Below are positions 3,298 to 19,895 of a stretch of DNA of 39,058 bases, in pieces. Position 1 is the first letter of the stretch, and each line of letters begins with the position of its first letter. The translations under genes were made by a program, and so were the position numbers. The DNA comes from a virus. Its lineage: Duplodnaviria > Caudoviricetes. The stretch is taken from positions 1-39,058 of IMG/VR virus record IMGVR_UViG_3300030451_005863; one strand, 5' to 3'. The notes under the pieces were generated by a model. It saw only the letters and a program-made list of their open reading frames with translations. It was not told the DNA's origin and did no database searches.

Positions 3298-3600
3298 TTA
3301 GATGTAAGGATTGTGTAAAGAATTAGTTTTTTTCGATGGTATTAATTTATTCCACGTTGGCTTGTATTTTTGTATCCAACGTCTTTCATACCATCTGATT
3401 TTATCGGGATCTTTTACTCGCAATATTTTAACAACACAATTCATTCTTTCAAAGTCGTAAGAACGCAATCTTTGATGAACATCCCAACGCGACATTCCAA
3501 TATAACGAATAATTTTACTCTCTTTACCAATGATAAAGTATATACCCCCGAAACATTCGGGGATATAACTAGGTTTAAGGTTGAATATTCTTTTACCCAT
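3298..3600 (-). CDS. Small GIY-YIG nuclease-domain protein
   Basis: GIYFI...RYIGMS, conserved R (QRLRSY), E (YERRWI) and terminal PTWN. Confidence 0.85.
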   Translation of the reverse strand: MGKRIFNLKPSYIPECFGGIYFIIGKESKIIRYIGMSRWDVHQRLRSYDFERMNCVVKILRVKDPDKIRWYERRWIQKYKPTWNKLIPSKKTNSLHNPYI

Positions 3601-3841
3601 TATTCAACTGTTCAAGTATCGGTCTTAAATTTCTAATAAGATTTTGTTTTAATTCTTTTACAATATCATCATTAGGATACTTAACTAAAATTTCCTCAAC
3701 AGCACTTTCTAACTGTTTATACATGAATTGATAATTCAATGCTGTTGTAGGATTGTCAGTTGGTTGATCTACTTGTTGAGCAGATTGCTCAACAAGTGTT
3801 GTATTAAGTATGTTAATTAAATCGTTATTAGGCATCAGCAC
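3593..3841 (-). CDS. Hypothetical protein
   Basis: 82 aa ORF overlapping both neighbours, with a GGGGTG RBS-like sequence. Confidence 0.7.
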   Translation of the reverse strand: MLMPNNDLINILNTTLVEQSAQQVDQPTDNPTTALNYQFMYKQLESAVEEILVKYPNDDIVKELKQNLIRNLRPILEQLNNG

Positions 3842-4190
3842 CCCCGATTTTTTCGTACTTAACTTTTATTTCAGTAGTTTCTTGTTCAACTAAAAATTCC
3901 TCATACAATTTTGGAAATTTTTCTTTGAACTTAGTTGTGTCAAATCTTTTCATCTTTCTTTGAATAAGTTGAGCAAAGCCCTCAAAGTCATTGCCCATAT
4001 CATTTAAGATAATAAGATTAGTTTTTAAGTCTTTGAAAGTTTGCACATATTCGGGTTTCATAAGACTTGTCTGTTTAGTGTATTCTGAAATAGTGGTTTT
4101 CAAAATACCATAGTTTAACAATGCAAGTTTTTGTTGTTGACTTGCTTTTTTAACTCTTATTTTTTTAAGAGTGTTTTTTTGCTTTGTCAT
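3828..4190 (-). CDS. Hypothetical protein (RFDTTKFKEKFPKLYEEF resembles the C-terminus of YqaJ-like phage proteins)
   Basis: 120 aa ORF with AAGGAG RBS; first gene after an operator-bearing promoter. Confidence 0.75.
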   Translation of the reverse strand: MTKQKNTLKKIRVKKASQQQKLALLNYGILKTTISEYTKQTSLMKPEYVQTFKDLKTNLIILNDMGNDFEGFAQLIQRKMKRFDTTKFKEKFPKLYEEFLVEQETTEIKVKYEKIGGADA

Positions 4191-4227
4191 AACTTTACTC
4201 CTTTTGTTTATGTTAAGTTATAACTAA

Positions 4228-4243: not shown

Positions 4244-4448
4244 TTTTTAAAAACAACTCTTTTTTTCACTATTTCAAAAAAAAATTTCTTTCATAGAGCC
4301 ACGCACATTAACATTTTAAACTCTTTTGATACTAGGGGTCATGGCTTTTTTTATCTAAAAAGATTTTAAATTTTACCGCCGTGTAGCGAACTGGCGTCCT
4401 AATCTTTCTTTTTAAAATAATTAGAGAACGCAGAAACGAGAAACGAGA

Positions 4449-4472
4449 CGGCACGGGTTGAAGCCCGTGCCG
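4449..4472 (-). terminator. Probable intrinsic terminator of the 4513-5016 gene
   Basis: CGGCACGGG-ttgaag-CCCGTGCCG, a 9 bp stem followed on the minus strand by TCTCGTTTCTCGTTTCT. Confidence 0.65.
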
Positions 4473-4512
4473 ATTGAATAAATAACAAGCACAACATAAG
4501 TAGATTGCTATT

Positions 4513-5016
4513 TCAACAAATCCTAAATCCATTACTTTCCTCGCAGAACTCAATAAACTCATTTACATTCTCTAATGTAAAAGGGTATTCTGAAGCATAG
4601 TCGTACTTCGCTTGAATCCAACTCCATGTATCGTGATCGTCCTTTGGATAGTCACGTGGTGCGAGATTTTTTTCACCTGTTTCAGCTTCGACTTTCTTTC
4701 GTAACATTTCATGAAGTTTATTTACATGGCGATTATTTTCTTCGGCTTTCTTCATGTCCTCTTCACATTCTTTGATACCTTTCGCAACTGTTCCGTTGCT
4801 AATTAACGCTTTTAATTGATTTGCAATTTGCTTTGCTTGTTCTTGGCTTACCTCATGCCCACCATTAGACTGCCACAAAGGTTTATTTTTTTCTTCTATA
4901 ACCCCTGTATGTTCGCAGACAAATTCGGCGAGACGACGCCACCACCAAACGTTGTTTCTGAAATACTCACCTTTTTCTGTTTTATGATTTCCTAGACTAT
5001 ATAAATCAAAGCCCAT
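4513..5016 (-). CDS. Conserved-looking phage hypothetical protein, 167 aa (MGFDLY...YFRNNVWWWRRL)
   Basis: Start reassigned to ATG 5014-5016, which follows an AAGGAG RBS and its own promoter. The longer 5319 start reads through non-coding repeats. Confidence 0.85.
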   Translation of the reverse strand: MGFDLYSLGNHKTEKGEYFRNNVWWWRRLAEFVCEHTGVIEEKNKPLWQSNGGHEVSQEQAKQIANQLKALISNGTVAKGIKECEEDMKKAEENNRHVNKLHEMLRKKVEAETGEKNLAPRDYPKDDHDTWSWIQAKYDYASEYPFTLENVNEFIEFCEESNGFRIC

Positions 5017-5041
5017 GATTTTCTCCTTTTGTTTATGTTTA

Positions 5042-5076
5042 TCCCATGAATGTAAGACTTTATTTGGTAAAGTCAA
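5042..5076 (-). promoter_or_regulatory. Sigma70-like promoter with operator copy 2
   Basis: TTGACT-16 nt-TACATT; operator TCCCAT-gaat-GTAAGA at 5042-5057 overlaps the -10 region. Confidence 0.7.
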
Positions 5077-5234
5077 GCACAAAATTTTCACGATCCACGA
5101 AACCTTCAGGAAGAAAAACTGGGGCTCTGGCTCTGGGAGCTGGTCTCTACACATTTGAGTGTCATCAAACGAGGAACTACCAACGAGACCACGCCTCTTC
5201 CAGCAGGATCTGGTGCTGGTACTGGCCAGGTCTC

Positions 5235-5345
5235 TTACCATAAGCTTAGAGCTGCTAGGACCGAGAACGCAATAAACGAGGGAGCGCGACATGCGATGGC
5301 TGCCGAAACGGCAGCCCATCCAATGATCATAATCCCGACTAACAT
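5235..5345 (-). CDS. Putative 36 aa membrane micro-protein
   Basis: MLVGIMIIGWAAVSAAIACRAPSFIAFSVLAALSLW starts 1 nt after the stop of 5347-5703. It overlaps a hairpin and an AACGAG unit, so it is uncertain. Confidence 0.45.
   Translation of the reverse strand: MLVGIMIIGWAAVSAAIACRAPSFIAFSVLAALSLW
5298..5316. terminator. GC-rich hairpin downstream of the 5347-5703 gene
   Basis: GGCTGCCG-aaa-CGGCAGCC, 8 bp stem. Confidence 0.5.
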
Positions 5346-5346
5346 T

Positions 5347-5703
5347 TTACTTTCCCCATGTTATTCCCTCTACATCTGTCTTGAACTTAACGTGTTGACG
5401 CAACTGTAGCTTCGTAAGTATTTTAGGTACGTTGTCTAACAAACCTTCACCTTTGAGTCTGCTGCCCTTGGTAATCCTCACCCACATCTTCTCGGCATAA
5501 CCACGGTGCTTGAACCATACGTACACGTAATCCTGCATCGAAGGCCTCCTTTCCAGCGCTTTTATCTTGAAGTATGTTTCTTTGCCGTGGTGAGGGCACG
5601 AGAAAACAACATTGTCTTCTTCTATCTGTTTGGCTTCTTCTTCCATTTGTTTGGCTTCTTCAGAGTCTAACGGATCTCTCCAAATAAATTTATCTTTGGT
5701 CAT
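5347..5703 (-). CDS. DUF2314 (YegJ)-like domain protein
   Basis: C-terminal EKMWVRI....GEGLLDNVP...L.L...VKF; N-terminal EEAKQ duplication. Confidence 0.6.
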   Translation of the reverse strand: MTKDKFIWRDPLDSEEAKQMEEEAKQIEEDNVVFSCPHHGKETYFKIKALERRPSMQDYVYVWFKHRGYAEKMWVRITKGSRLKGEGLLDNVPKILTKLQLRQHVKFKTDVEGITWGK

Positions 5704-5780
5704 AGTATTACCCCCACGAGCTTCAGGATAACAATGATGCTAACGCAAAAGGTTAGCTCTACTAGTATACTTTTAGACAT
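5700..5780 (-). CDS. 26 aa single-pass membrane micro-protein
   Basis: MSKSILVELTFCVSIIVILKLVGVIL; AGGAG RBS; ATGA overlap with the next gene. Confidence 0.7.
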   Translation of the reverse strand: MSKSILVELTFCVSIIVILKLVGVIL

Positions 5781-5801
5781 TTCTTTCTCCTATGTTATGT
5801 G

Positions 5802-5837
5802 TCCCATGTACATAAGACTTCTATCTCCTGCTGTCAA
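5802..5837 (-). promoter_or_regulatory. Sigma70-like promoter with operator copy 3
   Basis: TTGACA-17 nt-TATGTA; operator TCCCAT-gtac-ATAAGA at 5802-5817. Confidence 0.7.
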
Positions 5838-6148
5838 GAACTTTTTTGAAATCTTTTCCAGCAGAGGTTCCTGACGCTGGTGCTGGGCCCATGGTCATTA
5901 CCTCTTTGTTCAGCGAATGGCGATGAACGAGAACGAGGACTGCGATACCATCACCTGCTTCCCAGCTCCTGGCTGCACCAGCCAGTACCCTATTTACCTG
6001 AGTGTTGTCAAACGAGAGTTCGCCAACGAGAACGTAGCTTTTCGTACCACGGTAATCCTTCGCGCTGCCAGCTCCCAGATCCTGGGCCCAGAGTCTGATG
6101 GTCTTTAGTGGCGTCAAACGAGGAAACGAGAAGCGAGGAACGAGGACT

Positions 6149-6532
6149 TCAGGAGGCAGCACCAGCTGCCTTCGCCAGCAGCCTCCAGATCCCTTGAGTT
6201 GTGGTGTCCGAGGACGTAGAAACGAGGTCAACGCAACGAGAATCACGGTTCACGGCCAGAATTTCTAAGGCTCTCTGCTTGAGGGGGGAGTTCAGAATAA
6301 ATACTTTACCACCTGCCCTTTGATATTTGATATGCCAATTAATTTGCCACTTTGAAAGACCTCTATTCTTGAGGTCATTTGCTTTAAGTTCAAGCCAAAA
6401 AACACTTTGATTCAATACACAATGAACATCTGGAATACCGTTAGTAGTATTGCTTTCAACCCTTGTAAAATGTGCATTTTTGTTTATCTTCTTGATACGA
6501 TTCCAAAGCTTTGTTTCACCTGATTGAGCCAT
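6149..6532 (-). CDS. PD-(D/E)XK nuclease, VRR-NUC / Holliday junction resolvase-like
   Basis: E..LW..IK, RVES...GIPDV, WLELK, LSKWQINWH and GGKVFIL motifs. Confidence 0.8.
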   Translation of the reverse strand: MAQSGETKLWNRIKKINKNAHFTRVESNTTNGIPDVHCVLNQSVFWLELKANDLKNRGLSKWQINWHIKYQRAGGKVFILNSPLKQRALEILAVNRDSRCVDLVSTSSDTTTQGIWRLLAKAAGAAS

Positions 6533-7178: not shown

Positions 7179-7694
7179 CTATGTGTTTTCGATAGATTTT
7201 TCTGGCGTAACGTCAATGATATTCTTGGCTTCACCAATTTTTTCTTCGAGCTCATCTAACCTCTTTTCTAATTGTTCTCTTGATAATCCTTCCAAACCTA
7301 AATGTGTTACCTCTTTTCGATCAACAAAAAAACCAGCCATTTTGCCTTTTGCAACTTCAGCATTAATAGCCGCCGTAAACTGACCTTTATTTTCTGCGCC
7401 ATTACGTAATCTATCGTAGGTTTTATATGATCTTAATTTATCTTTTTCATAAATTGCTAATTCTTGAGCCATTCTTTTTTCTAAGTATCTACAAACATGA
7501 GGATTTATATCTGGGTTAGTTAATCTTGACGCTGTCTCAGTAGGGCCATATTTGTTTTTACTCGTGTATCCAGCCTCTTTTGCTGCATCTACTTTTGAGA
7601 TCTTGCCATAATTCTCAACGTAAATATCAATAAATCTTTTTTGTTTTGGGGTTAGATCCAATACAGTTCTTAAGGATTTTGATTTTTGTGGCAT
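7179..7694 (-). CDS. terS: Terminase small subunit
   Basis: LTPKQKRFID.Y...AAKEAGY...ASRL.NP HTH N-terminus typical of Terminase_2; C-terminal IIDVTPE. Confidence 0.85.
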   Translation of the reverse strand: MPQKSKSLRTVLDLTPKQKRFIDIYVENYGKISKVDAAKEAGYTSKNKYGPTETASRLTNPDINPHVCRYLEKRMAQELAIYEKDKLRSYKTYDRLRNGAENKGQFTAAINAEVAKGKMAGFFVDRKEVTHLGLEGLSREQLEKRLDELEEKIGEAKNIIDVTPEKSIENT

Positions 7695-7701
7695 GCTATA
7701 T

Positions 7702-7948
7702 CCTATACCTCTTTCCTAGAAAAATAAATACAGGTCAATAAAATTCTATTTTTTTTCCATTAGGAAATGGTATTTTCCTAGAAATCTAGGAATTTTCCTA
7801 GTTTTTTTTTGAGAACTAGGAAAGCTTTTCTGTAATAAATACAATAGTTTAAGTAATATTTTCCTAGTTTCCTAGTAAAAAAGCTGTATTTGAAAAAAAA
7901 AATAAATTTTTTTTTCTAAGCAGTGGGTATAGGGTGTAGAACTAGGAA
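7702..7948. repeat. TTCCTAG/CTAGGAA iteron-like array in an AT-rich tract (candidate origin or pac region)
   Basis: TTCCTAG at 7713, 7775, 7795, 7861, 7869; CTAGGAA at 7786, 7816, 7942; bracketed by inverted CCTATACC (7702) / GGTATAGG (7926). Confidence 0.75.
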
Positions 7949-7950
7949 AA

Positions 7951-7967
7951 CTTAGAATAATTCTAAA
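7951..7967. promoter_or_regulatory. Irr/ICE-like palindrome
   Basis: CTTAGAA-TAA-TTCTAAA, one mismatch from the ICE consensus TTTAGAA-N3-TTCTAAA. Confidence 0.5.
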
Positions 7968-8039
7968 CTATAGATACCCACAGCGTTCGGTATCTTTTTT
8001 CTTGTTGATTTTGACATAAATCACGTATATCTTTAATTA

Positions 8040-8111
8040 GTTTTTTCATTTTTAGCACCTTTCAAACATAGGAGAACACATGACTTGGATCAGGGGGAAA
8101 CCCCTTGATCC
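8040..8111 (+). ncRNA. Candidate small RNA 1 (may also encode an 18 aa peptide, 8080-8136)
   Basis: Upstream TTGATT-17-TATCTT (8005-8033) and TTGACA (8011); ends in hairpin GGATCAGGGGG-aaa-CCCCTTGATCC (8087-8111). Confidence 0.4.
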
Positions 8112-8227
8112 CTGGCCCGTGACCCGTGATCCTTGACTATACATTCAACAACCAAGATACACGGCTCACTGATTCTGTTTGTTAATTTAATACCCTTGAC
8201 ACAACTAACTAAAAAAATATATACACT

Positions 8228-8290
8228 GCCTGTATATACAACTCCAATGTTTATGTGGGGGGCTGGTGAAGGGAGACTAGAGCCAGCCCT
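8228..8290 (+). ncRNA. Candidate small RNA 2
   Basis: Upstream TTGACA (8196) with TATATA/TATACA -10 candidates; no ORF; ends in a GGGCTGG...CCAGCCC hairpin that abuts the convergent stop at 8290. Confidence 0.4.
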
Positions 8291-8730
8291 TAAATAATAA
8301 CCGATACTAATATTGATGAAAATAGAGAAGTAGAGGCATGATAAACTGCTGATCTTAAATGCTCTAAATGTTTTCTATGATATTTTTTTGAACTAGGCTC
8401 TTTACACTTTCGATACTTCTGATATTGCACATAATACCTTCTCCAAGCAACTTGTTTTTCTGTAAATTTTATATCTTTTTTCTTAATAGCTTGCACATAT
8501 TTTGATTTTACATGTTCAGGGGAAAATCCTGCCCAATAACAAATACTTTGAAAATCATCACCTTCGTTCATAATCCAATTATGAGCTTCTAATTTAAATA
8601 TACTAGACTTACGATCGTTTTGATTATTACAAGAATCTTCTAATGCATTGCATAGTACACCCCGCCAAAGTTTTTCTTCTCCAGGAACATCGTTTGTTGA
8701 AAGTAATGTTGCAGCGAAACTAGTGCCCAT
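8290..8730 (-). CDS. Conserved-looking phage hypothetical protein
   Basis: EEKLWRGVL.NALED...AHNWI...DFQSICYWAG pattern; start at 8730 chosen to minimise overlap. Confidence 0.75.
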   Translation of the reverse strand: MGTSFAATLLSTNDVPGEEKLWRGVLCNALEDSCNNQNDRKSSIFKLEAHNWIMNEGDDFQSICYWAGFSPEHVKSKYVQAIKKKDIKFTEKQVAWRRYYVQYQKYRKCKEPSSKKYHRKHLEHLRSAVYHASTSLFSSILVSVII

Positions 8731-8944
8731 AAGTTTTAATAAGGTAGGTGAGTAAGTCACGATAATAAATTACCCTGTCAGGGTCACTCCTTTTTTTTGC
8801 AAGATAAAAGTTGTAATCATCATGAACATTTTCTATTAAATTATAAATATCCTGTCCAGACCAACCTTCAACTTTTGGAATATCAAGAAAATCTTTAAAT
8901 AAAGCCATATCGAGAGTATAATTATTATTAGCCACTTTTACCAC
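8720..8944 (-). CDS. Hypothetical protein (alternative start 8908)
   Basis: ORF tiled between neighbours; TATACT lies 6 nt before ATG 8908. Confidence 0.7.
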   Translation of the reverse strand: MVKVANNNYTLDMALFKDFLDIPKVEGWSGQDIYNLIENVHDDYNFYLAKKRSDPDRVIYYRDLLTYLIKTYGH

Positions 8945-9434: not shown

Positions 9435-9845
9435 TTAATCCATTTCAGCATTGAGAACTGCTTGCTCTAATGTATCTAAAATTTTACGATGCTCTTTAAT
9501 AGCCTCAATAATATCGACTGCGTTTTTCTTTTTGATAATTCTATCAAAAGAAACTCTTAAAGTGTCAGCGCACTTATTTGCAATAGATTTATTTAAAGTT
9601 TGATATAGCTCTGTTCTATCCTCAATGCTCGATTCATCCATACTAAAATCTAAACCAAAAGAATCTAATGTTGAAGATAATTCATTTAAAGATTCCTTAC
9701 CAAAACCAGGCATACGTAGGAATTCTTCTTTTGACCTAATAACTATATCCCTCAACTTCCAAATTTCCATTTCAGCTAATATTTTTGATGTTCTACGACT
9801 TAAAGTTGATAAATTAGATATTTGTTTATCTAAAACATTACTCAT
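9435..9845 (-). CDS. RNA polymerase alpha subunit C-terminal-domain (alpha-CTD)-like protein
   Basis: LDKQISNLSTLSRRTSKIL..MEI..LRDIV.RSKEEFLRMPGFGKESLNEL...L.SFGL matches the alpha-CTD pattern L.LSVR..N.L....I....DLV...E.ELL..PNFG.KSL.EI...L...GL. GGAG RBS before ATG 9845. Confidence 0.8.
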   Translation of the reverse strand: MSNVLDKQISNLSTLSRRTSKILAEMEIWKLRDIVIRSKEEFLRMPGFGKESLNELSSTLDSFGLDFSMDESSIEDRTELYQTLNKSIANKCADTLRVSFDRIIKKKNAVDIIEAIKEHRKILDTLEQAVLNAEMD

Positions 9846-10059
9846 CTCTACTCCTTCCTGGCTTACCATTTGTTTTCAAAAGTTTATTTATGTATTTATC
9901 TGTGGGTTGTTTTGTTTTTTTAGCCCGTATATCAACATATTCATGTATCATTTTAGAAATCATACTTGCAGGTGATCTGAATTTTGCATTACATAGTGCT
10001 TTAAGAATATCATAATCTGGTTTTCTAACTGCAACTGATTTAAATTTGTTTATGTCCAT
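9838..10059 (-). CDS. Ribbon-helix-helix-like DNA-binding protein
   Basis: KSVAV beta-strand followed by helices YDILKALC and SPASMISKMIHEYV; AAGGAG RBS. Confidence 0.65.
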   Translation of the reverse strand: MDINKFKSVAVRKPDYDILKALCNAKFRSPASMISKMIHEYVDIRAKKTKQPTDKYINKLLKTNGKPGRSRDE

Positions 10060-10195
10060 TTTTTACTCCTTTGTTTAGTTTATTTGGGGTCATACCAAAC
10101 ATGAAAAATCCATCCTTATCTTGGTATAGTTTTTTAAACCCTAACTTTCTTAATTTAGTTGGCACTTTTACATTTTTATTTTTACTTGTAGCCAT
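10040..10195 (-). CDS. Small basic hypothetical protein, 51 aa
   Basis: MATSKNKNVKVPTKLRKLGFKKLYQDKDGFFMFGMTPNK... fills the gap in the operon; GAGGAG RBS. Confidence 0.6.
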   Translation of the reverse strand: MATSKNKNVKVPTKLRKLGFKKLYQDKDGFFMFGMTPNKLNKGVKNGHKQI

Positions 10196-10364: not shown

Positions 10365-10468
10365 AATATTGGACCTAAGATTATTGCTAAGATAACCAAT
10401 AATGTTTTTGGAAAAGAAATCAAAAGAATAAGGATCAATAAAAAAAATTCTAGATTGTCGAACTTCAT
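10358..10468 (-). CDS. 36 aa membrane micro-protein
   Basis: MKFDNLEFFLLILILLISFPKTLLVILAIILGPILW; AGGAG RBS; ATGA overlap with the upstream gene. Confidence 0.7.
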   Translation of the reverse strand: MKFDNLEFFLLILILLISFPKTLLVILAIILGPILW

Positions 10469-10722
10469 TTTTTCTCCTGTTTACATTTTATCTCATCGTT
10501 AACTAACAGACTAACTATTTCTTGATTGAAAGGTTTATACAAATTACCAAAATCGTCACTCAAAAAAATATTCTTGACGTTTTGTTCATGTTTTATTTTT
10601 TCATTAGAAGTCATCATCGATTTACCATAGTAATCTTGTGAATCAATGTTGCTTAGTTGCCTGTCTAGTTTTTTGACAAGTTGCACAAATTGTTGTGACT
10701 GACTGTTTATGTGTATTTTCAT
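10465..10722 (-). CDS. Hypothetical protein, first gene of the regulatory operon
   Basis: Start moved to ATG 10722 because the 10749 start lies inside the promoter. Confidence 0.7.
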   Translation of the reverse strand: MKIHINSQSQQFVQLVKKLDRQLSNIDSQDYYGKSMMTSNEKIKHEQNVKNIFLSDDFGNLYKPFNQEIVSLLVNDEIKCKQEKK

Positions 10723-19817: not shown

Positions 19818-19837
19818 AGTGACCTCCTATTTTATGT

Positions 19838-19895
19838 ACCGACTATATAAATTACGAGTTTGACATTGTAAAGAAAAAAATATATTAATGGGACA
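19838..19895. promoter_or_regulatory. Divergent promoters between the replication operon and the SNF2 helicase
   Basis: Plus: TTGACA (19860)-17-TATTAA followed by an ATGGGA operator half-site. Minus: TTTACA-17-TATATA. Confidence 0.6.

Follow-up and report, generated by a model that had tools for sequence, protein, structure and literature searches.

A conserved candidate small RNA gene in HTVC023P-type phages, with a seed predicted to pair with the ribosome-binding sites of island genes

Analysis of a 39,058-nucleotide stretch of viral DNA (the window, a 39-kb piece of a virus record that is 65% complete) revealed at positions 8196-8296 of the + strand a real, conserved and uncatalogued element with the anatomy of an RNA gene. 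The element probably encodes a trans-acting antisense small RNA (sRNA) of ~65 nt that is predicted to mask the ribosome-binding sites of island genes and, judging from the joint change of its seed and their leaders in relatives, likely dampens the translation of a 120-aa and a 167-aa gene and maybe of a few more. The window derives from an HTVC023P-type phage, an abundant ocean type described as lytic in the available text of PMC12753301. Among 50,697 phage records the sole similar DNA was the terminase small subunit gene of the Pelagibacter phage HTVC023P (70% identity), around which the gene order is alike in the two phages, and from this sequence similarity and like gene order we infer that the host is SAR11. 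Nearly all window genes lie on the minus strand, including those for a family A polymerase, a UvrD helicase and the terminase small subunit (7179-7694). The element sits in a 600-base gap between the terminase small subunit gene and a 156-aa gene with no assigned function (8290-8760, minus strand), a convergent neighbour whose stop codon abuts the hairpin of the element.

The unit runs on the + strand against the direction of the genes and is composed, in order, of a TTGACA box, a sequence resembling a -10 box, a seed and a hairpin. TTGACA, the -35 element of the predicted sRNA promoter (P2), occupies 8196-8201, where the first-pass annotation of this DNA had placed it; its spacing is fixed within each group of relatives and the spacer drifts. 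The predicted -10 box, TATATA (8218-8223), follows a 16-nt spacer and lacks the last-position T, and the TGGGA box found at other promoters of the window is absent. A consensus scan of the window listed neither the sRNA promoter nor its hairpin, the promoter being missed because of the absent last T of the -10 box; according to the available text of PMC7703639, -10 boxes without -7T are common in alphaproteobacteria. Anatomy and conservation point to an RNA of ~62-67 nt with predicted ends at 8230 and 8296, which would begin with a short palindrome (8231-8240) at the place where group B relatives have an 8-bp co-varying 5' hairpin. The seed (8242-8256) is composed of two blocks, an anti-SD CUCC and, after a 2-nt loop, an anti-leader UGUUUAUGU; the bases claimed earlier for this site are correct, with 8241-8256 reading ACTCCAATGTTTATGT. 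The 3' hairpin (8260-8289) is capped by an invariant GGGAGACU (8271-8278), in which a G.U and a G-C pair close a GAGA tetraloop. Groups B and C have it in the form of a canonical terminator; in the window it lacks a U-tail (TTAAATAA). The single-sequence fold of the window element is only mildly unusual (z -2.4), and the seed is about half unpaired in the window RNA (0.43-0.69). In metatranscriptomes (four runs, at most 6% of words, with unstranded and shallow contigs), 8230-8296 lay outside all of the pieces listed. The minus strand had been described as lacking a usable open reading frame (ORF), in agreement with our finding that the sole start behind the motif is a GTG ~15 nt past GGAG that opens 5 codons.

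Relatives of the element were collected by two routes. Among 47 loci found via the 156-aa protein, 39 have the loop word no farther than 400 nt past the 156-aa gene, three lie on contigs that end too early (L001, L046, L047) and five lack the loop word (L009-L012, L028); the position of the unit and the loop are kept down to ~49-55% identity of the neighbouring protein. A pattern scan yielded at least 120 stretches, 119 of which were examined, with at least 22 having related proteins. The combined set of 56 loci including the window (some contigs counted twice) represents 35 distinct sequences, consisting of 6 elements of group A (including the window), 24 of group B and 5 of group C. TTGAC[A/T/C] precedes the seed in 35/35 distinct elements, partly by selection, as the script and one scan were anchored on TTGAC. 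The -10 box is identical in all six group A elements, at a spacer identity of 0.41. A seed scan over 5 of 64 parts of a metagenome contig collection placed none of the 120 listed loci in the family, and a group A pattern search of viral contigs gave 31 matches and no new variant, the family members among them being known contigs.

In the group B consensus, a 5' hairpin that begins at the predicted start site and the terminator flank ~19 nt of unpaired linker. The consensus structure is paired in 98.3% of cells with 9 of 17 pairs changed on both sides, and none of 500 shuffles scored as high, in a test that kinship inflates; slid controls were 26-51% paired. The hairpin is more stable on the + strand in 27/27 distinct variants (mean -20.3 versus -13.9 kcal/mol, with an invariant G.U adding to all), and at least five U among the eight nucleotides behind it are found on the + strand in 24/24 group B and 5/5 group C elements, compared with 1/29 on the minus strand. 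The U-tail is present in 0/6 group A elements, window included. The best-kept part of the group B element is the seed linker, with an identity of 0.98, compared with 0.65 in the promoter spacer and 0.45 in the discriminator, which argues that the seed is not a decaying leader.

Two other readings of the element were considered and rejected. A conserved sense-strand peptide is at odds with frames and lengths that vary from member to member, the ORF being absent in L075, L005 and L006 and 3-30+ codons long elsewhere; in L075, the sense AUG is lost and both the hairpin and the target pairing (via G.U) are kept. A minus-strand terminator at 8218-8240 is not general, since the T-run follows in the window and L002 only. 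With respect to the neighbouring 156-aa gene, nine loci were checked; in six of them the hairpin lies directly against the stop codon, leaving 10-17 nt up to the loop, and in L032, L037 and L016 insertions of 60-200 nt part hairpin and gene with the unit kept.

Within the window, the seed is complementary to the leaders of island genes as the first-pass annotation had proposed: the 17-base antisense that it quoted matches exactly at 4198 and 5023, and the pairing over the SD comprises two blocks of 9 bp and 4 bp (167-aa gene) or 5 bp (120-aa gene), separated by a 2x3 internal loop, with GGAG covered. The pattern CTCC-N2-4-TGTTTATGT occurs three times in the window versus a mean of 0.003 in 300 dinucleotide shuffles, none of which reached three; the 9-mer alone occurs five times, always on one strand (shuffle mean 0.95, with 1/300 reaching five). 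When 61 start regions of the window were ranked, 8 of them with mis-set coordinates, the five best belonged to the 120-aa gene, a putative RHH gene, the 167-aa gene, a 26-codon ORF and an 85-aa gene, for which 2, 2, 47, 46 and 138 of 2000 shuffled seeds, respectively, paired as well. The best-supported predicted target is the leader (4191-4220, minus strand) of the 120-aa gene (3828-4190), which ranks 1 of 61, and the second conserved predicted target is the leader (5017-5042, minus strand) of the 167-aa gene (4513-5016), which ranks 3 of 61, tied with the 26-aa gene. A weaker possible target is the leader (5781-5806, minus strand; -16.9 kcal/mol) of the 26-codon ORF (5700-5780), and the first codons (10698-10722, minus strand) of the near-leaderless 85-aa gene (10465-10722) constitute a possible coding-region site with a 10-nt complement (-15.8 kcal/mol), a motif that is missing in L005/L006. 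The match to the leader and first codons (10040-10080, minus strand) of the putative RHH gene, rank 2 of 61, is confined to the closest kin of the window. The window duplexes are modest, at -16 to -18.5 kcal/mol before refolding and -3.7 to -13.0 after, and 19 other 40-nt window sites outscore the best leader. A partial tag was also observed at 19818-19840 (minus strand) in the leader of a 181-aa Pam3 gp33-like gene (rank 6 of 61, and 9 of 106 in the relative G003), which is possibly a further target in the replication block.

Conservation of the predicted pairing was assessed in four complete relatives, where automatic ORF calls gave 100-106 start regions each (the last 0.9-1.5 kb of two genomes being left out). 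The 120-aa gene ranks 5, 2, 15 and 1 and the 167-aa gene 4, 6, 6 and 4, so that 7 of the 8 ranks lie within the first six of ~100 start regions. The leader sequence of these genes is AACAUAAAC in group A and either AACUAAC or AUUAAC in groups B and C, with matching changes in the seed. In a swap test using 5, 11, 4 and 1 distinct seeds from four groups (L035 was left out owing to a mis-picked promoter), own-group pairing in the A versus B comparison was better than swapped pairing by 8.0 kcal/mol for the 167-aa gene and 9.9 kcal/mol for the 120-aa gene; the values were +1.4 to -0.5 kcal/mol for five control leaders (RHH, TerS, TerL, nuclease, polymerase) and -2.8 and -2.9 kcal/mol for two other island genes. 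The B versus C difference is ~1 kcal/mol only, and for the 24-nt group C seed on the 120-aa leader the own-group value (-8.9) is worse than those for A (-11.7) and B (-11.6). By computation, the SD is covered by the predicted duplex in each of the four groups. In group B, pairing with the 120-aa start region involves the entire 5' part and extends across the AUG (-20 to -26 kcal/mol), at the expense of a hairpin worth 5-7 kcal/mol, and in group C, an 11-nt match joins the predicted 5' end to the altered start of the 120-aa gene.

Co-variation of seed and leaders, which the first-pass annotation had called for, is thus seen for two island genes and reflects in the main one change at clade level: group A forms one clade (95/93), so the clearest co-variation represents a single event, and C nests within B. 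Departures were noted in L033, L037 and L080, where the group B 167-aa leaders changed and the seed did not, and in L008, where part of the motif is lost from the 120-aa leader. A wobble-direction test gave 4 versus 1 among 31 differences, which are small numbers. A search of GTDB genomes for the exact 17-nt target of the group B seed, to which wobble sites are invisible, returned 36 matches, none titled Pelagibacter.

The wider proposal of the first-pass annotation, a trans RNA that silences several early genes at once as the partner of an RHH loop, stands in part. The RNA-gene anatomy conserved on the + strand and the co-variation for two island genes speak for a trans RNA; several genes at once holds to the extent of two conserved targets (120-aa and 167-aa), the three more being seen in the window only. 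The partnership with an RHH loop is unsupported, as targeting of the putative RHH gene is not conserved: the gene ranks 2 of 61 in the window and 44-57 of ~100 in the four relatives, its leader shows no group-specific pairing, and the RHH fold is unconfirmed. The fold model of the candidate has a pLDDT of 69.9 and a pTM of 0.41 with no strand predicted, and comparison with the PDB gave no match at E<=0.001, PutA and antitoxin DNA-binding domains appearing only at E>7. The gene itself (9838-10059, minus strand) encodes a highly conserved 73-aa protein with an RHH-like pattern, and in the closest kin of the window two synonymous changes at RHH codons 2 and 4 create a perfect 9-nt seed match. An adjacent gene (9435-9848, minus strand), present in few relatives only, has a match to the RNA polymerase alpha C-terminal domain (Pfam E 3e-08).

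Promoters at 5076, 5837 and 10760 (minus strand) and at 19860 (+ strand) were found to combine TTGAC with an imperfect TCCCA-N6-TGGGA box over -10/+1. This box is kept in relatives, is echoed in the early promoters of HTVC027P, and is likely an operator. The island genes may be early by analogy to HTVC027P, the timing being an analogy since no 167-aa homologue is reported in that phage; its gp35-gp39, which lie between the terminase genes, partly with similar promoter boxes, are classed as Early in the available text of PMC12753301.

A second element, unit 1, lies upstream at 8011-8136 on the + strand and is composed of a TTGACA box, a stretch (8043-8059) complementary to an SD-plus-AUGAAAA start, a sense leader copy (8064-8082) that carries an SD and an AUG, and a GAAA-capped hairpin (8088-8110). 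Unit 1 is present in groups A and B and absent from 10/10 group C loci. Its coding capacity is 18 codons in the window and 16-25+ in other group A members, and is reduced to Met-Thr-stop in group B and in L005/L006; the stop of the group B AUG-ACU-UGA overlaps the -35 box of the sRNA promoter. The leader copy of unit 1 co-varies with the seed (A-A -13.5, B-B -14.8; -9.2 and -9.4 when swapped), and the two pair in the minimum-energy fold computed for 8040-8296, which raises the cost of opening from ~3 to 6.9 kcal/mol; for the window duplex, 453 of 2000 shuffled seeds are as good. Unit 1 is possibly a sponge or a cis partner of the seed. Between the two units, at 8133-8195 on the + strand, a third TTGAC box resembling the group C promoter region lies in an insert known from the window and L002 only.

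We considered it unlikely that the shared motif is instead a site for a phage or host protein, acting in promoter-proximal DNA or as a translation enhancer in mRNA, the copies of which changed together with the protein; the copy at 8242-8256 would then serve the protein as a site, or as a decoy, in the minus-strand transcript of the 156-aa operon. Such a site would account for the location of all five 9-mer copies on one DNA strand and of three copies, if the near-match at 5837 is included, at most ~25 nt past TTGAC promoters that carry a TGGGA box, and the swap test cannot separate pairing from a shared protein site. However, the copy lies inside an opposite-strand unit of promoter, hairpin and U-tail, an SD-complementary block at leader-like spacing is kept in all groups, the group B complement extends over the start codon, for which a protein site has no need, and no conserved minus-strand terminator is found behind the copy. 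The opposite-strand RNA-gene anatomy and the retained complement to SD and AUG point to pairing, which we favour over a protein site on these sequence features.

There is also a small chance that the unit descends from an ancient duplication of an early promoter-leader cassette and persists as a convergent promoter and hairpin, which would stop or disturb transcription running from the 156-aa operon towards the terminase region, through cis antisense or collision, the leader match then reflecting shared origin or gene conversion. Consistent with such an origin, the hairpin abuts the 156-aa stop codon, the GGGAGACU hairpin elsewhere is a plain gene-end hairpin (HTVC027P, L098, L134), the minus strand in group B reads as a whole leader with AUG, and in group A, which lacks the U-tail, the RNA would run on antisense to the 156-aa gene. 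A duplicated cassette leaves unexplained, however, why the unpaired seed is the best conserved part in group B and why it tracks island leaders only, and the three members with insertions before the hairpin keep the unit nonetheless. Still more doubtful is a cis switch, in which the seed would in truth pair with the unit 1 RNA: a long transcript initiated at 8011 would fold its leader copy onto the seed and so form a switch around the minigene, and the island leaders would match the seed merely by resembling the leader copy of unit 1. The co-variation of that copy with the seed, their pairing in the minimum-energy fold and the overlap of the group B start-stop with the -35 box all fit a cis switch, but the 10/10 group C loci without unit 1 keep promoter, seed and terminator, and the window duplex does no better than many shuffled seeds.

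Under the preferred reading of a trans-acting antisense RNA, host RNA polymerase would transcribe from the TTGACA promoter against the phage genes, with a start at ~8230. The 3' end would be set by the GGGAGACU hairpin, presumably through termination in groups B and C; in group A, window included, the missing U-tail makes read-through followed by trimming more likely than termination. Through its seed the RNA would then bind in trans to at least two leaders, those of the 120-aa and 167-aa genes, covering the SD and the upstream A-rich tag, and the 30S subunit would be occluded by a duplex of 13-14 bp, or of up to ~28 bp, over the start codon, in group B. Early genes would in this way be turned down as infection proceeds. 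A conserved multi-target antisense RNA would provide a lytic phage with a protein-free way to turn early genes down, and groups A and B constitute a natural swap experiment with exact seed-target pairs. In a more elaborate version, which we regard as improbable, two RNAs would form a switch in these phages, the most abundant of the pelagiphage groups, with the sRNA silencing several early genes via the leader tag, the leader-mimic minigene RNA sponging or releasing it, and superinfection exclusion being group-specific. If this were true, the RNA would also silence the early genes of an incoming phage of the same group, constituting RNA-coded exclusion in a lytic phage.

Compared with known phage RNAs, the window RNA would appear to act like P1 c4 and P22 Sar and is not a member of either. 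The c4 RNA of P1/P7 is similarly a phage RNA with short complementary stretches around the ribosome-binding site of phage mRNA, leading to a translation block that is specific between related phages (PMC12197685, available text). Its target is the ant (antirepressor) message in lysogeny control and its seeds lie in loops, whereas the predicted targets of the window RNA are several, dispersed and without assigned function, and its seed forms the single-stranded link between the two hairpins of the group B consensus and is in part base-paired in the window fold. Rfam gave no match at gathering score in the window, with two chance-level snoRNA matches in 7900-8400 at E<=5, and no antirepressor match to the predicted targets was found in Pfam or PHROGs (31 and 15 window proteins scanned). 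Membership in c4 fails on the lack of an Rfam match, of an antirepressor target and of a seed in loops; the c4-like trait of short, imperfect predicted pairing over phage ribosome-binding sites is present.

The Sar RNA of P22 (68/69 nt) is comparable in size, is transcribed from its own promoter against the gene direction and blocks translation initiation of a phage gene (PMC12197685, available text). Sar has a single target, ant, whereas the predicted targets of the window RNA lie 2-4 kb away and pair imperfectly. Sar is encoded opposite its target and is fully complementary to it, a trait absent here, with no usable gene opposite the window unit and the matched leaders at the distance given. 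PreS of lambda and VpdS of VP882 are likewise short trans-acting phage sRNAs, of 50-90 nt (PMC12197685, available text). They are Hfq-dependent and act largely on host RNAs, whereas the evidence for the window RNA points to phage targets. Hfq usually binds the U-tail of an sRNA, and the group of the window is without it; our literature search found no statement on Hfq in the host. Among the general traits of sRNA genes, the unit has a conserved seed complementary to target start regions, with moderate accessibility in the window; its putative promoter keeps TTGAC and TA at fixed spacing within groups. No sRNA from these phages was described in the literature searched, most subscription papers and bioRxiv supplements lying outside the search; the main text of PMC12753301 contains neither 'sRNA' nor 'antisense', and the available text of PMC10884466 and PMC2704228 holds nothing decisive for the comparison.

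In HTVC023P (L048:10045-10660), a + strand gene, gp20, fills the gap and is followed by an anti-leader stretch with a terminator and by another unit resembling a promoter, in which anti-AUG and anti-SD stretches precede a hairpin. The anti-leader stretch, an analogue of the window unit, was not matched in a search with the family model, and it fits the leaders of HTVC023P itself best (-17.5 and -19.8 kcal/mol). In bases 1-30000 of HTVC027P, where the family model found no window-type unit, the only GGGAGAC lies in a similar tail-less hairpin between gp03 and gp04. Between these two genes the mean TPM drops from 270,687 to 3,302 (~80-fold; PMC12753301, available text), and hairpin and drop together are consistent with an RNA 3' end on the strand reading GGGAGACU. 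Gene-end hairpins of other relatives carry the GGGAGACU cap as well, so that it characterizes a type of hairpin and not this RNA alone. More distant phages have TTGAC with a GGGAGACU hairpin head-to-head with the terminase small subunit gene or in intergenic DNA (L053:4893-4992, L070:3221-3325, L098:796-887 and L134). Their seeds differ, and a search for targets in these four found none; L053, L070 and L098 score weakly with the family model (E 0.027-0.54).

Lastly, several repeats were observed elsewhere in the window. Direct and inverted CTAGGA repeats cluster at 7710-7960, before the terminase small subunit gene, and are kept as CTAGGAA in group A and HTVC023P or as CTAGGAG in groups B and C; the cluster is possibly a packaging or replication signal. 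The GC-rich spacers between island genes (4400-4480, 5080-5320 and 5850-6270) contain repeated AAACGAG words and strong hairpins, and long near-perfect inverted repeats lie within a GIY-YIG gene and an 80-aa gene (3541-3567 and 3770-3798).
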